A stretch of DNA of 64,000 bases, from positions 32,001-96,000 of the forward strand of contig JAFCCL010000003.1 of NCBI GenBank assembly GCA_017610205.1, written 5' to 3'. This document shows positions 15,216 to 20,264 of the stretch, in pieces. The notes under the pieces were generated by a model. The model saw nothing but the letters and a program-made list of their open reading frames with translations, searched no databases and was not told where the DNA came from. Both the position numbers and the translations under genes were made by a program. Source of the stretch: Candidatus Iainarchaeum sp. (GTDB lineage Archaea; Iainarchaeota; Iainarchaeia; Iainarchaeales; GCA-2688035). Within the stretch, counting starts at the first letter, position 1; each line of letters starts with the position of its first letter.

Positions 15216-15539
15216 TTGGACAACTCTTGGATTAAGTTTAAATGCTTAAAAAGCGTTTTTTATTCAGTTAGAAGGTTTTTTTATGCCAGATTTGCAGGAA
15301 ATATTGGGTCATTAAAAAGAAAGAGAAAACTGATTGCAAAAAAGCGAAAGCATCCTGCAAGTAAAATTAAACTATCGTATGTTACTGAAAGGTTGCCAAC
15401 AAGAGTTGTTAGTAAAAGAAATACTAAAATTTCTCGCGGTACCAAAGTTAGGCGAAGAGCTGGCGAGTCACCTGAAGAACTGATACGCCGGTTTAAAAAA
15501 GCTAGTAAAAGTTATAGGCTGCCAAGATTAAAGCGTTAA
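15216..15539 (+). CDS. Highly basic orphan ORF with a bS21-like C-terminal motif; start uncertain, may be degraded
   Basis: KVRRRAGESPEELIRRFKKAS. Confidence 0.4.
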   Translation: MDNSWIKFKCLKSVFYSVRRFFYARFAGNIGSLKRKRKLIAKKRKHPASKIKLSYVTERLPTRVVSKRNTKISRGTKVRRRAGESPEELIRRFKKASKSYRLPRLKR

Positions 15540-17059
15540 TTTCTATTTTTTCTTGCAACAATGTTCAACATCTTTTCAGTTGCTTTTACTGCTGCCATTA
15601 TTTGGTCTGAGTCAACTCCTATTGTGGAAAAGTTTTTCTCTTCATTTTCCCATGTAATAATTGTTTCAACAAGAGCATCTGTTTTTCCACCTGGGGGAAT
15701 TTTTACCTCATAGTTTGCCAGTACTGGTAGTTTTATTCCTGCTTTTTTGCTTACTTTTGTCAAAGCGTTCATAAAAGCATTGTAACCTCCGTCTCCGACA
15801 GCACTTTCACTGAACTTGTTGCTATTGGCTTCAAGTGTGAACGAAGCACTTGGCTTTATGCCTGTGCCTGAATAAACTTTGCAGTTAACAATTTTGTAAA
15901 AGCTTTTTTCAGGTGTACCAAGAAGATCTGATACAATGAATGGAAGGTCTTCAACTGTCACTGTATTTTTCTTGTCTCCAAGTTCAATAATTCTTTTTAG
16001 TAATTTTTTCTTTTCTTCTTTGCCAAGGCTTAATCCGAGCTTTTCAAGGTTTTGGTCAATGCTTGCTTTTCCGCTTAGTTTTCCAAGAGCATACTGTCTT
16101 TCTTTTCCAAATCTTTCTGGTTTGAGTTCGCTTTCATAAAGTCCTGCTTTTTTGTCTCCGTCTGCATGAATGCCTGCAGTTTGAGTAAAAACATTATCTC
16201 CTGTAATTGGTTTGTTTGCAGAAATTCTTTTTCCTGAAAATGCTTCAACAATTTTGCTTGCTTTTGAAAGCATTTTTTCATCAATATTGCAGCCAAATTC
16301 TGTCTTGTCGTTTAATACAACTGCTAATTCGTCAAGTGGTGTGTTTCCAGCTCGTTCTCCAAGACCGTTTACTGTTGCATGTACTGTGGCACATCCTGCT
16401 TTTACTGCGACCAAACTGTTTGCAACTGCAAGACCATAATCATTGTGTGCGTGAAATTCAAATGCAATATCCGGAAAGTTTGTTACCATTTCTCCAACAA
16501 GCGTTTTTGTTTCTTCTGGTGTTAAAATGCCAAGTGTATCACAAAGGCTTGCTCTTTTTACGCCTTTTTCTTTTGCGGTTTCAACAAGTTGTTTTACAAA
16601 TTCTTTGTTTTCAAACATTCCACTGCTCCAGATTTCTATTCCAAGATTAATTTTCAAACCCTTGCTTTTTGCATAATCTATTGTTTTGCCAAGTTCTTCC
16701 AAATGCAGTTCAGGGCTTTTTTTCAGTTGTTCTTTTATATGAAGCAGGCTTCCTTTTGCAAGAAGCCACATTGTTTCAACTCCTGCTTCAACAGCCCAGT
16801 CAACACTTTTGTTGCTGTCAACAAAGCCGAGAACGCTTAGCTTTTCAAGAAACCCGTTTTCTTTTGCCCATTTGGAAATTTTTTGAACTGCTTCAAGTTC
16901 TCCTTTACTGACTCTTGTGCTGGCAACTTCAATCCAGTCAACTTTTACTTCTGAAAGCAGTATTTTTGCAATGCTGAGTTTTTCTTTTGGAGTAAATGAA
17001 ACTCCCTGGGTTTGTTCTCCATCCCTTAAAGTGGTGTCAAGAATTGTTATTTTTTTCAT
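15536..17059 (-). CDS. cimA: (R)-citramalate synthase, Leptospira/Bacteroidetes-like LeuA/CimA family with C-terminal allosteric domain
   Basis: DTTLRDGEQ, IEVASTRVSKGE, LGFVD, HAHND, NGLGERAGN, IPPGGKTDALV; GGAGG SD before ATG 17059. Confidence 0.88.
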   Translation of the reverse strand: MKKITILDTTLRDGEQTQGVSFTPKEKLSIAKILLSEVKVDWIEVASTRVSKGELEAVQKISKWAKENGFLEKLSVLGFVDSNKSVDWAVEAGVETMWLLAKGSLLHIKEQLKKSPELHLEELGKTIDYAKSKGLKINLGIEIWSSGMFENKEFVKQLVETAKEKGVKRASLCDTLGILTPEETKTLVGEMVTNFPDIAFEFHAHNDYGLAVANSLVAVKAGCATVHATVNGLGERAGNTPLDELAVVLNDKTEFGCNIDEKMLSKASKIVEAFSGKRISANKPITGDNVFTQTAGIHADGDKKAGLYESELKPERFGKERQYALGKLSGKASIDQNLEKLGLSLGKEEKKKLLKRIIELGDKKNTVTVEDLPFIVSDLLGTPEKSFYKIVNCKVYSGTGIKPSASFTLEANSNKFSESAVGDGGYNAFMNALTKVSKKAGIKLPVLANYEVKIPPGGKTDALVETIITWENEEKNFSTIGVDSDQIMAAVKATEKMLNIVARKNRN

Positions 17060-17136
17060 GACTTTGCCTCCTTTCAAAAAGTGTTTTATTGCTTAAATTG
17101 GTTAAAGGGTTAAAATTAGTTAAAATTAGAAAAAAG

Positions 17137-17172
17137 TTATAGTAGAATCCGTAAATTCCTTCTTAGAGTCAT
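17137..17172 (-). CDS. Putative cimA leader peptide MTLRRNLRILL
   Basis: ATG ACT CTA AGA AGG AAT TTA CGG ATT CTA CTA TAA, followed by CTTTTTT. Confidence 0.6.
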   Translation of the reverse strand: MTLRRNLRILL

Positions 17173-17194
17173 AATAACTATTGCGTATTTGAAG

Positions 17195-17202
17195 TTTTTA
17201 AA
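17195..17202 (-). promoter_or_regulatory. TATA box of the leader-cimA transcript
   Basis: TTTAAAAA on the minus strand, 22 nt before the leader ATG (leaderless spacing). Confidence 0.6.
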
Positions 17203-17270
17203 TCTAAGCCTTTTTTTGGGCAATTTTCGTGCTAAAACCCTTTTAATCTTTTTCAATCCCAATTAATGCT

Positions 17271-20264
17271 ATGGAAGTCAATCTTTGCAGAATAGAGGTA
17301 AGTTTTCAGAATGATGCAAGGGCTAAAATTGCAAAAAAGTCCATTGAAAGGGCTGGCTTTGGCAAAATAAGTGCTGTTTCCCTAAATGATGTTTATACAA
17401 TTTCTTCACAGTTTCAGGAAAAAGACCTTGAAAAATGCGCTTTTTTGCTTCACAACCCTGTAACACAGCAATTTTCAATTGGAAAACCACTGCCTTCAAA
17501 AGAATTTGACTGGGCAATCGAAATTGGTTTTCTTCCAGGAGTAACTGACAATGTGGGAAAAACTGCTGCCGAAACTTTGCAGGATTTTTTCGGAGAAGAA
17601 GCAAAGGAAACCGCGGTTTTTAGCTCTCAGCTTTTCTTTATCAAAGGTGATTTTTCCAAAGAGGAAGCAGGAAAGATTGGTGAAATTTTTGCAAACCCGC
17701 TAATTCAGGGAATTTACATTAAAACCAGAGAGCAATTTGAAGCAGATTCCGGAATGGATGTTATTGCTCCCATTGTAAAGCTTCATGAAGAACCAAAAGC
17801 CCGCGAAGTCAATCTTGAGATTTCAGACGAAGAACTTTTAAAACTTGGCAAGCACGGAATTCTTGACCATGTTGAATCAGACGGAACAGAGGCAAGGCGC
17901 GGCCCTCTTGCACTTGATCTTTCTTCCCTTCACATAATAAGAGATTATTTCAAAAAAGAGAGCAGAAAACCAACAGATATTGAGATTGAATCCCTTGCAC
18001 AAACCTGGAGCGAGCACTGCAAGCACACAATTTTTGCAGCAGAGCTTGATGATTTGGAAAAAGGACTTTACAAGGGACTAATAAAGGACGCAACTGAAAA
18101 AGTCAGGGAAAGCAAGGGCAAAGAAGACAATTGTGTTTCTGTTTTTGTTGACAACAGTGGCGGAATAGATTTTGACAAAGAAAACATTGTTTCTGACAAG
18201 GTTGAAACCCACAACAGTCCGTCTGCACTTGACCCCTTTGGCGGAGCAATAACAGGAATTGTTGGTGTAAACCGTGACACAATGGGTTTTGGAATGGCTG
18301 CAAAGCCAATAATTAACAGGTATGGATTTTGCTTTGCAGAGCCAAAAGATGCAGAACTGCTTTACAGAGCCAAGGAAAAAGGAAATTCAATTCTTCCTCC
18401 TGAACGCATAATGCTTGGAGTAATAGACGGAGTGCAGGTTGGCGGAAACTGTTCAGGAATTCCTACTCCTACAGGTTTTATGTATTTTGATGAAAGATAC
18501 AAGGGCAAGCCACTTGTGTTTGTTGGAACAGTTGGATTAATGCCAAGGCTGGTTAATGGAAAGAAAGGGCATGAAAAAAAGGCAGAACCAGACGATGTTA
18601 TAGTAATGGTTGGCGGCCGCGTTGGCCTTGACGGAATCCACGGCGCAACCTTTTCTTCAGAAGCACTGTCTTCAGGAAGCCCTGCAACAGCTGTGCAAAT
18701 AGGTGACCCGATTACTCAGAAAAAGATGTCTGATGCAATTGTAAAAGAAGCAAGGGATTTGAATTTATACACAAGCATTACCGACAATGGTGCAGGTGGC
18801 TTAAGCTGTTCTGTTGCAGAAATGGCAAAAGAATGCGGTGGATGCAGTGTTGACTTGGAAAAGGTTCCTGTAAAATATCAGGGAATGTCTCCTTGGCAAA
18901 TTTGGGTTTCTGAAAGCCAGGAGAGAATGACTCTTGCAATTCCAAAAGAAAAAACAAAGCAGTTTATTGACCTTATGACCCAACGCGGTGTTGAAGCAAC
19001 AGCAATAGGTGAATTTAACGATTCGCAAAGATGTGTTGTTAAATTTAACAATAAAAAAATAATGGACATTGACATGCATTTTTTGCACGATGGGCTTCCA
19101 AGAAAAAAGCTTGCAACAAAGCCAATGTACCCGTTTTTAAAAAACCCTTCTTTTGAAGAGCCTTCAAATCTTGGAAGAACATTGCTTGAAATGCTTTCAA
19201 GGCTGAATATTTGCAGCAAGGAATTTATTTCTGCACAATACGATCACGAAGTTCAGGGTTCCTCTGTGCTAAAACCCTTGCAGGGCAAAGGCAGAGTAAA
19301 TGCAGACGCTGCGGTTGTAAGGCCGTTGCTTGAAAGCCAAAAAGGAGTTGGCGTTTCGCACGCGCTTTATCCTGGTTATGGTGACATTGACACCTACTGG
19401 ATGGCTGCAGCAGCAATTGATTCTGCTGTTAAAAATCTTATTGCTGTAGGGGCAAAAATGGAGGATATTGCTTTGCTTGACAACTTTTGCTGGTGTTCAA
19501 GCAATGAGCCTGAAAGGCTTTGGCAATTAAAGAAAGCAGCACAAGCCTGCAATGATTTTGCAATACTTTACAAAACGCCTTTTATTTCAGGCAAGGACAG
19601 CATGTTTAATGATTTTAAGGGATTTGATTCAGATTCAAATGCATTAAAGATTTCGGTTCCTCCAACTTTGCTGATTTCATCAATTGCAGTAATTTCTGAC
19701 AGCAGAAAATGCGTTTCAATGGATGCCAAAATTGAAGGAGACCTTGTTTACGCAGTTGGCTTTACAACCGGCGAGCTTGGTGCTTCCGAATATTACAGAA
19801 TGCAGGCAAAAAAGGCAAATGACAAAAATGCAACTGGCGGAACAGTGCCGACGGTTGATGGAAAAAAGGCACTGGCTTCATACAACGCGCTTTCAAAAGC
19901 AATTGAAAAAGGACTTGTCGCGTCAGTTCAGGCTGTTAGCCTCGGAGGCCTTGGGATTGCAATAGCAAAGAAATGTATTGCAGGTCGCATTGGGGCAAAA
20001 ATTGATTTGAAAAAGGTTCTATCAGTTGGAATTAATAGAAATGACAGCATTTTGTTTAGTGAAAGTCAAAGCAGGCTTTTGGTAACGGTTGCTTCTGAAA
20101 ACAAATCTGGTTTTGAATCTGCAATGAATGGAATCAGGTTTTCTAAAATTGGAATTGTTTCAGGCACCAAGCTTGAGATAACAGGAATTGCTGGCAAGCA
20201 GAAGATTTCGCTGCCTGTTTCAGAACTTGAAGAAGCTTACAAAAAAACTTTGAGGGATTATTAA
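17271..20264 (+). CDS. purL: FGAM synthase PurL with N-terminal PurS-like extension
   Basis: QTWSEHCKH, KVETHNSPS, DNGAGG, SESQERM, LLDNFCW; about 170-aa N-terminal extension with LPGVTDNVG. Confidence 0.95.
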   Translation: MEVNLCRIEVSFQNDARAKIAKKSIERAGFGKISAVSLNDVYTISSQFQEKDLEKCAFLLHNPVTQQFSIGKPLPSKEFDWAIEIGFLPGVTDNVGKTAAETLQDFFGEEAKETAVFSSQLFFIKGDFSKEEAGKIGEIFANPLIQGIYIKTREQFEADSGMDVIAPIVKLHEEPKAREVNLEISDEELLKLGKHGILDHVESDGTEARRGPLALDLSSLHIIRDYFKKESRKPTDIEIESLAQTWSEHCKHTIFAAELDDLEKGLYKGLIKDATEKVRESKGKEDNCVSVFVDNSGGIDFDKENIVSDKVETHNSPSALDPFGGAITGIVGVNRDTMGFGMAAKPIINRYGFCFAEPKDAELLYRAKEKGNSILPPERIMLGVIDGVQVGGNCSGIPTPTGFMYFDERYKGKPLVFVGTVGLMPRLVNGKKGHEKKAEPDDVIVMVGGRVGLDGIHGATFSSEALSSGSPATAVQIGDPITQKKMSDAIVKEARDLNLYTSITDNGAGGLSCSVAEMAKECGGCSVDLEKVPVKYQGMSPWQIWVSESQERMTLAIPKEKTKQFIDLMTQRGVEATAIGEFNDSQRCVVKFNNKKIMDIDMHFLHDGLPRKKLATKPMYPFLKNPSFEEPSNLGRTLLEMLSRLNICSKEFISAQYDHEVQGSSVLKPLQGKGRVNADAAVVRPLLESQKGVGVSHALYPGYGDIDTYWMAAAAIDSAVKNLIAVGAKMEDIALLDNFCWCSSNEPERLWQLKKAAQACNDFAILYKTPFISGKDSMFNDFKGFDSDSNALKISVPPTLLISSIAVISDSRKCVSMDAKIEGDLVYAVGFTTGELGASEYYRMQAKKANDKNATGGTVPTVDGKKALASYNALSKAIEKGLVASVQAVSLGGLGIAIAKKCIAGRIGAKIDLKKVLSVGINRNDSILFSESQSRLLVTVASENKSGFESAMNGIRFSKIGIVSGTKLEITGIAGKQKISLPVSELEEAYKKTLRDY

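Follow-up and report, generated by a model that had tools for sequence, protein, structure and literature searches.

The stretch of DNA analysed here (the window; 64,000 nucleotides (nt) of contig JAFCCL010000003.1 of a Candidatus Iainarchaeum sp.) carries a cimA-like gene, i.e., a member of the citramalate/isopropylmalate synthase family, that is preceded on the minus strand by a short upstream open reading frame (uORF). Based on a comparison of this region across the order, we lean, with due caution, towards the reading that the uORF is a leaderless mini-gene in which a programmed +1 frameshift at a single hungry isoleucine (Ile) codon couples the supply of tRNA-Ile to the expression of cimA. 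The frame of the uORF is henceforth called Z, and the frame lying one base further on (+1 of Z) is called X. Conservation of the element, frame geometry, and codon patterns were observed directly across loci and are presented below together with the alternatives on which they bear.

In the proposed mechanism, transcription would begin at or beside the A of the uORF ATG, yielding a leaderless mRNA on which ribosomes start in frame Z. With CGG (codon 8) occupying the P site and ATT (the Ile codon) the A site, what happens next would depend on how much charged tRNA-Ile is available. If tRNA-Ile is ample, the ribosome would continue and terminate three codons on, and the leader would stay untranslated. 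If it is scarce, the waiting ribosome would slip one base forward (CGG A to GGA), read TTC, translate the Ile-poor frame X over the entire leader, and terminate on or just past the cimA start codon. Two candidate effector steps are considered, i.e., cimA could be raised via termination-reinitiation coupling at the overlapping stop and start, or via the ribosome trailing the polymerase through the T-rich leader and thereby guarding it against termination. At the fused loci described below (type B and L216), X leads directly into cimA, and the shifted ribosome would make the enzyme itself. What we infer in this scheme is that a shift occurs, where exactly it takes place, that it depends on Ile, and by which step cimA is raised. 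The features of the locus are as follows:

17195..17202, minus strand: TATA box TTTAAAAA of the leader promoter, beginning 30 nt before the uORF ATG, in the genome-wide TTTAAA peak.
17137..17172, minus strand: frame Z, the putative leaderless uORF of 11 codons plus stop (MTLRRNLRILL), from sequence reading and conservation.
17155..17163, minus strand: purine-rich core AGAAGGAAT (consensus AGAAGGGAT), conserved at the nucleotide level in the comparison of loci and modestly Shine-Dalgarno (SD)-like.
17145..17151, minus strand: CGG ATT C, candidate site of the +1 shift (P-site codon, Ile codon, C), from the conserved pattern.
17037..17162, minus strand: frame X (+1 of Z), 41 stop-free codons, ending at a TGA 20 nt into cimA.
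17130..17135, minus strand: T6 tract directly past the uORF stop, where archaeal transcription might terminate or pause, from sequence reading.
17067..17071, minus strand: GGAGG SD sequence of cimA, beginning at -12, within the peak of SD-like words of the genome (-14 to -10).
15536..17059, minus strand: cimA-like gene (citramalate/isopropylmalate synthase family, with LeuA allosteric domain), from profile matches.

The uORF reads ATG ACT CTA AGA AGG AAT TTA CGG ATT CTA CTA TAA, with four leucine (Leu) codons and one Ile codon. It is separated from the TATA box TTTAAAAA by 22 nt, and its stop is followed by C, the T6 tract, and two CTAATTTTAA repeats, before cimA begins with the ATG at 17059. 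An earlier note on this region, made from the letters alone, had described the TATA box, the 22-nt gap, the uORF, the T6 tract, the CTAATTTTAA repeats, the GGAGG, and the cimA ATG, all of which are correct to the base. It had also proposed a leaderless uORF, and the spacing of the promoter agrees: the TATA box lies at -30, and a TTTAAA peak was detected at -31 to -29 before the ATG of 781 long open reading frames (ORFs) of the genome (20, 15, and 11 occurrences vs. mostly 1–6 elsewhere). A TATA-like hexamer was found at -31 to -28 in all 25 of the related loci introduced below as type A. Judged by this spacing, the uORF ATG appears to be placed where the leaderless genes of the genome begin. 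The codon usage check suggested in the note likewise bore out its remark on CTA, which accounts for 8.7% of Leu codons in 493 long ORFs (vs. 39% for CTT and 22% for TTG) and is uncommon, not rare. CGG, i.e., codon 8 of the uORF, is the rarest Arg codon in the genome (3.1%; 1.1 per 1000). The core motif occurs a single time in the 1.37-Mb genome.

For the comparison of upstream regions, likewise suggested in the earlier note, cimA orthologues were called at E-values of up to 1e-100, and 55 of the 196 genomes of the order were found to have cimA, while 19 further genomes of the phylum from outside the order contributed no additional cimA. Four of the 55 loci were cut by contig ends, leaving 51 usable loci with upstream DNA. 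A uORF with in-frame ATG and core motif was identified ahead of cimA in 47 of these, and homologues were additionally recovered from six metagenome loci (see below). Going by these alignments, the uORF is real and conserved, more than chance would give. An exact scan for the motif across all species genomes pointed the same way: among the 120 matches listed, six had an ATG at -8, and the same six had cimA downstream. The motif was not present at 15 loci of leuA-like paralogues in relatives.

The 47 loci split into two types. Type A comprises 25 loci from several families, including the window, and follows the layout ATG nnn nnn AGA AGG GAT nnn (CGG/CAA/GAA) ATH Cnn. The type A uORF mostly ends at codon 12 or 13 (12 of the 25 loci have the stop at codon 12; TAA, TAG, and TGA all occur), beyond which a spacer and then the SD sequence and start of cimA follow. 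Type B comprises 22 loci from one AT-rich sister family and is laid out as ATG, 0–12 extra codons, and AGT GAT nnn (GCC/CCC/ACC) ATY, with just 34–115 nt from ATY to the conserved D of DTTLRDGE in cimA. Changes in length between ATG and core amount to whole codons. The four usable loci without the element were two genomes of one family where cimA is simply led by an SD sequence, a locus in which only remnants persist, and one locus (L033; G122:C25:1711-2220, reverse strand) with a deletion that fuses the uORF ATG GTC to cimA codons. The L033 junction reads ATG GTC GCA GAT TTA GTG AAA ATA GTT GAT GTC, and cimA, now placed directly under the TATA box, has become leaderless and free of the leader, i.e., a natural "deregulated" variant.

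Constraint within the uORF differs from codon to codon. The leader codons AGA, AGG, and GAT show almost no synonymous change (GAC in 0 of 47 loci), whereas among the invariant residues of cimA (DTTLRDGEQ) at the same 47 loci D is encoded 25 times by GAC and 22 times by GAT and R uses all six codons. Over its 5′ half, the core is therefore constrained as nucleotides and not as the peptide RRD. An Ile codon was found in 46 of the 47 loci and occurs as ATT (33), ATC (10), and ATA (3); the remaining locus has CTT and belongs to a genus-mate of L033 (L042). Across these sequences, it is seemingly the amino acid, or its tRNA, that is constrained. Leu codons are not kept in the same manner, as positions 3, 7, and 11 vary in the encoded amino acid, and codon 10 can specify L, R, P, or Q (CGN, CCC, and CAA were seen), although it is C-initial in 44 of 47 loci.

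Codon 8 directly precedes the Ile codon and follows a rule of its own: it is CGG in 11 loci, CAA in 11, GCC in 19, GAA in three, CCC in two, and ACC in one, such that the second base equals the third in 47 of 47. CGA or CAG were never observed in the 47 loci, though both were permitted by the search pattern. A codon of the form N-BB (i.e., with second and third base identical) that is followed by A retains the middle anticodon pair upon a +1 slip. The N-BB form also occurs in the known sites CUU U, CUU A, and UCC U. The complete shift-site pattern, N-BB, Ile codon, and C, holds in 47, 46, and 44 of the 47 loci, respectively. Entry into X is limited to codon 7, 8, 9, or 10 in the P site by TAGs in X and by the earliest stop in Z, which was found in L051 at the second codon past the Ile codon. 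When codon 8 occupies the P site, the A site contains the Ile codon, and owing to the conserved C the slipped ribosome would next read TTC, TCC, or TAC.

The conservation of the core at the nucleotide level, past what coding needs, would also be compatible with the 19-nt core being a site for a DNA repressor just downstream of the TATA box, a position where archaeal repressors commonly block polymerase recruitment, or a site for an RNA-binding protein, the frames being incidental in either case. We regard such a binding site as very improbable. It leaves unexplained the in-frame ATG and the whole-codon changes in length, the three kinds of stop at one position and the synonymous Ile codons, as well as the stop-free frame X ending at the cimA start and the fixed frame of the fused loci, which are described in the following.

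In type A, frame X was stop-free from the Ile codon to the cimA start region in 25 of 25 loci, corresponding to 16–53 codons. Stops summed over these 25 stretches numbered 63 in Z, 36 in Z+2, and none in X; in the window alone, counted from the Ile codon to the X stop, Z has seven, Z+2 has four, and X has none. The chance of a stop-free X in shuffled sequence was 0.05–0.6 per locus, and the product over loci, 10^-15.9, is overstated, as the loci are related. Relative to the cimA start, the X stop begins at +1 in nine loci (ATGA, GTGA, TTGA), at +5 in 11 (ATGnnTGA), at +20 in two, namely the window and the relative nearest to it, and at -5 in one. Overlaps of stop and start are the usual signature of translational coupling. 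The position was unclear in the remaining two of the 25, of which one is ambiguous and the other is L034 (G119:C41:72-581). The cimA start of L034 reads ATG AAA AAA TAA, and one extra A in the A6 gives MKKITILDTT as in the window; this start is probably a homopolymer miscount in a 2.6-kb contig.

The X peptide of the window (EGIYGF...NNNS, then stop) is encoded without any ATG, GTG, or TTG, which is likewise the case for X in seven of 26 type A loci including the window (the 25 order loci plus L137). Where X of a type A locus does hold a canonical start, the position of that start is unconserved. In sequence, the X peptide is little conserved, and the sole indel between the window and its nearest relative measures 18 nt; together, these observations fit selection on the translation of X and not on its product. 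X is also poor in Ile codons. Across type A, 17 of 630 codons were Ile, whereas stop-free shuffles gave 49.0 ± 6.3 and none of 2000 fell as low, and the type B linkers had 5 of 253 compared with 39.8 ± 5.5, in both cases against shuffles that kept mononucleotide content only. An Ile-poor X would be expected if X must be read under Ile scarcity.

The type B loci carry the frame argument into the coding sequence. cimA lies in frame X in 22 of 22 loci, and nine different spacings between Ile codon and D codon occur, every one of them 1 mod 3. Read in X, the stretch in between consists of P-F-N-S, a Ser/Asn-rich linker, and F-I-E-I-M-D-T-T, and synonymous changes at its conserved residues indicate that it is translated in this frame. 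In 10 of the 22 loci, X contains a TAG located 5 nt ahead of the Ile codon, and in eight loci no ATG, GTG, or TTG occurs between this TAG and the conserved N-terminus of CimA. As sequenced, these eight start-less cimA genes cannot begin conventionally. Reading of TAG as a sense codon in the type B family was considered unlikely and rejected, as no cimA match there held an in-frame TAG; the lone internal stop, in G155, is TAA.

Some further peculiarities were observed in type B. The core module is tandemly duplicated in L058 and L065 (e.g., AGC AAT TTA ACC ATT GGC GAT TTA GCC ATT). The first copy in L065 is without GTGAT and without the C past the Ile codon, and a shift there would hit the TAG of the second copy. 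A conserved word, TAGTGTTTG, is located 5–14 nt ahead of the uORF ATG and resembles a direct repeat of AGTGATTT of the core. TATA-like hexamers lie at -42 to -27, and some transcripts may have a short 5′ leader.

An alignment of ten CimA proteins served as the query against metagenome contigs and thereby provided loci from outside the set of genomes. Out of 381 relatives, the best 80 were used, and the core pattern applied to them left codon 8 and the base past the Ile codon free. A type A core was detected in seven of these best 80, one of which is a duplicate of L008, leaving six new loci. All six have the in-frame ATG, CGG, CAA, or GAA as codon 8, the Ile codon, and the C (6 of 6). In five of them, X ends at +1, +1, +5, +17, and +19 relative to the cimA start. 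X of the sixth (L216) continues into cimA, with a TAG in X just ahead of codon 8 and a cimA frame devoid of start codons upstream of DTTLRDGE. A locus such as L216, i.e., a type A core together with a start-less cimA, is what the frameshift reading would predict and what the other readings would not.

The earlier note had explained the leader differently, namely by a ribosome-dependent attenuation that couples the supply of Ile/Leu-tRNA to termination at the U-tract. Such classical attenuation, in which a pause at the Ile/Leu codons of the uORF alters termination at the U-tract while the frame stays unchanged, agrees with the conservation of the uORF and of its Ile codon and with the T6 past the stop in the window. 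Moreover, the leuA paralogue of relatives has an apparently classical Leu-rich leader with hairpin and T-run, and leader-peptide control may hence exist in the order. We nevertheless consider it improbable. The description of the leader as Leu/Ile-rich held for the Ile codon only, as the Leu codons are unconserved and there is one Ile codon without any run. A tract of T5 or longer is present in 16 of 25 type A leaders, and nine leaders are without one. The leader was found to be as hairpin-free as the note had claimed, i.e., no terminator-like hairpin was found at it, which counts against a classical attenuator; neither were mutually exclusive terminator/antiterminator pairings found in the leaders. 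Rfam returned no match at E-values of up to 1 in 16950–17320, and only a tRNA in the whole window at gathering score. A stalled ribosome would be expected to uncouple from the polymerase and thus lower read-through, which would be the wrong sign for a starvation response. Finally, stalling leaves unexplained the lack of stops in X up to the cimA start in all 25 type A loci and the fusion of cimA to X in 22 + 1 loci.

The leader of the leuA-like paralogue was found at loci L016, L018, and L020–L030, where 13 of 14 loci had a Leu-rich leader with 6–9 Leu in the last 13 residues (e.g., ending in LLALLVLVLLLLG and a stop). In most of them, a hairpin formed by GCACTYCCTRGC and GGGAGTGC and then GGTTTT follow directly past the leader. 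By sequence, this leader in a DPANN order looks like a bacterial-type leader-peptide attenuator, and classical-looking leader control and the design proposed for cimA would thus coexist in the order.

A number of points weigh against the proposed frameshift, beginning with the relatedness of the loci and the composition-only shuffles mentioned above, to which it has to be added that ATH counts in frame Z are low as well (22 in type A, 8 in type B). Furthermore, 12 of the 22 type B loci do hold a canonical start in the cimA frame. In 10 of these 12, the sole candidate is the GTG within AGTGAT of the motif, while the remaining two, L058 and L068, have other starts. As the GTG within the motif could begin cimA, recoding is not forced at those loci. 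The same GTG, being the only canonical cimA-frame start in 10 of 22 type B loci, speaks for an alternative in which X is entered by a non-canonical initiation of its own or by reinitiation past the uORF stop, with the uORF competing with or feeding this entry. Candidate sites for such an initiation are available in the X codon past GGG, which is ATT, ATC, ATG, GTC, or GTT and encodes I, M, or V, i.e., possible near-cognate starts. We rate this alternative as unlikely. Initiation at that codon would be abortive in 10 type B loci and L216, where a TAG in X follows right past it, and no other start exists in eight type B loci or in L216. The X of the window is without any ATG, GTG, or TTG, and the purine-rich core abuts the candidate codon without the spacer of a ribosome-binding site (RBS). 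Own initiation also gives no reason for the identity of second and third base in codon 8 or for the Ile codon in Z.

Further counterpoints concern the shift itself. The case for it is entirely comparative, and the exact shift site was inferred. Among the 17 sequencing runs listed for 16700–17500, all were DNA with small word shares and none was RNA. Following a slip from CGG to GGA, just the middle base pair would, by our reasoning, be kept with a CCG anticodon. Pairing between the core and the 3′ end of the 16S rRNA, which in three relatives is GGAUCACCUCCU, had a median of -7.1 kcal/mol, while the background had its median at -4.6 and its 5th percentile at -9.3, and in the window this pairing is weak with the best site elsewhere. 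The duplex ends 1–3 nt ahead of codon 8 in 29 of 47 loci. A strong SD mimic was dropped as a component, the pairing being only modest. A hairpin over the shift site (GGGAUy/rAUYCU), in which 80% of cells pair, was also rejected as functional, since a slide of -1 gives 76.6% and no covariation above shuffles was seen (66 of 500 reach the score). Minimum-free-energy folds of the leaders differ among loci. The cimA RBS was not predicted to be more deeply buried by the native leader than by shuffled ones (z averaged +0.68 and was negative in 7 of 24), which fails to account for how cimA would be held off without a shift and leaves an unmasking of a hidden start, as in ermC, unsupported. A scan of the genome for other leaderless mini-ORFs with a shifted frame open to a long ORF was too noisy to be used (39 candidates in +1 vs. 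105 in +2); the cimA locus is among the 39.

The link of the gene to Ile has to be weighed as well. The product of cimA (17059-15536, minus strand; 507 amino acids) had its best match in the Leptospira-type citramalate synthase NF042433 with 683.5 bits, which falls under the curated cut-off of 950, and comprises HMGL-like, HCS_D2, and LeuA_dimer (allosteric) domains. The CimA enzyme family begins the pyruvate route to Ile. In the 92% complete genome, ilvD, ilvB, and leuB were not found, ilvC gave a weak partial match only (35 bits), and Iso_dh had no match in any of the seven genomes of the genus. These missing partners of the Ile pathway render the link from cimA to Ile uncertain in the source organism and are a further argument against the proposed switch there. 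No leuA paralogue was found in the genome either. A strong LeuB-type match is present in most other cimA-bearing relatives of type A, many of which also carry a leuA paralogue. Although this genome is only 92% complete, cimA may be a pathway orphan in it, a status that weakens the Ile logic for this organism and not for the clade.

The missing partners would suit a +1 frameshift that occurs at a fixed ratio or responds to something other than the charging of tRNA-Ile, such as polyamines or growth rate, and the frame evidence for such a shift is identical to that for an Ile-dependent one. We nonetheless consider an Ile-independent shift of this kind improbable. The only codon conserved at the level of the amino acid is that for Ile, with all three synonyms in use and right past the putatively slippery codon, and X is depleted of Ile codons. 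In addition, the enzyme belongs to a family whose established role is at the beginning of the pyruvate route to Ile, and its LeuA allosteric domain is present.

The genome assembly comprises 1.37 Mb with 37.7% GC and is without an rRNA gene. Archaeal markers in the window include a Hef helicase-nuclease, a diphthamide synthase, and a homologue of the RuBisCO large subunit; the clade is Iainarchaeota-like DPANN. Divergent from cimA lies purL (ATG at 17271, plus strand), for which, within 17231-17273, a TTTTAA begins at -30 and which thus is apparently leaderless, too. The 211-nt intergenic region between purL and cimA hence holds two back-to-back promoters of the leaderless type. PurL (17271-20264, plus strand) has 997 amino acids, including an N-terminal extension of about 227 residues with a weak PurS match (21.7 bits; cut-off 22.2), and is probably a PurS-PurL fusion.

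Ribosome-mediated sensing of amino acids is textbook knowledge in bacteria. The enterobacterial attenuators ilvL, leuL, thrL, and pheL share with the cimA leader a short translated leader with a cognate codon before a biosynthesis gene. They differ in that the cimA leader has one cognate codon without a run, lacks alternative hairpins or a hairpin terminator, and needs a second frame in +1. The +1 sites of prfB, the bacterial gene for release factor 2, which regulates itself by this shift, and of antizyme are CUU UGA C, with an upstream SD-like element, and UCC UGA U, respectively. Similar to prfB, the cimA leader combines a brief ORF in the zero frame with what would be a functional output in +1; its P-site codon repeats the second base at the third position, its A-site codon would be slow and serve as the sensor, and a purine-rich element lies a few bases upstream. 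Unlike in prfB, the putatively slow codon is a sense Ile codon instead of a stop, the setting is archaeal, the +1 frame is mostly a leader ending at a separate gene, and the SD-like pairing is weak.

Frameshifting is described as both sensor and effector in prfB and antizyme, and yeast Ty1 undergoes a +1 shift at a hungry codon (CUU AGG C), in the 2016 review PMC5009743. In Ty1 and antizyme, a slow A-site codon comes after a P-site codon with second base equal to third, as is proposed for the cimA leader; they are eukaryotic and sense a rare tRNA or polyamines instead of an amino acid made via the controlled enzyme. According to the same source, a ketolide-induced frameshift in the ermC leader lets ribosomes enter the spacer, and frameshifting in pheL is judged incidental (PMC5009743). 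As proposed for cimA, some ribosomes of the ermC leader ORF change frame, translate the spacer, and permit downstream expression. By comparison, the ermC event is induced by a drug and unfolds a structure that hides a start, whereas for cimA burial of the start is not predicted and the trigger would be the supply of tRNA-Ile.

For archaea, the consulted part of PMC8211752, a 2021 review of archaeal recoding, names fucA1 (Saccharolobus, -1) as the one demonstrated case of recoding, besides tail genes of haloarchaeal viruses and a proposed case in magnesium chelatase. These share with cimA the recoding by archaeal ribosomes and differ in that, as far as that part of the source extends, the cellular cases are -1 or of unstated direction, the sole +1 case is viral, and no regulatory leader is mentioned (PMC8211752). 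Full-text literature searches returned no archaeal Ile leader peptide or attenuation and no frameshifting tied to an archaeal uORF or to citramalate synthase. Neither ribosome-mediated sensing of amino acids in an archaeon nor a regulatory +1 frameshift in an archaeal cellular gene was found in these searches or in the consulted portions of PMC5009743 and PMC8211752.

If the proposed reading is true, sensing of the prfB and antizyme type would, newly with cimA, be set in an archaeal biosynthetic leader, and the supply of charged tRNA would be read out through recoding instead of stalling. A defined junction peptide follows as a prediction from the fused loci (type B and L216), at which gene callers would mis-start or truncate cimA. 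There would further be a mechanistic route to attenuation without terminator hairpins. More tentatively, and as a suggestion that we would sooner doubt than assert, cimA could be one of a wider class of frameshift attenuators: archaea without terminator hairpins may have arrived at a way of sensing amino acids unlike that of bacteria, in which a hungry cognate codon in a leaderless mini-gene would cause a +1 shift, and the ensuing run through a cognate-poor and otherwise untranslated leader would guard the transcript against termination and deliver ribosomes to the biosynthetic gene downstream.

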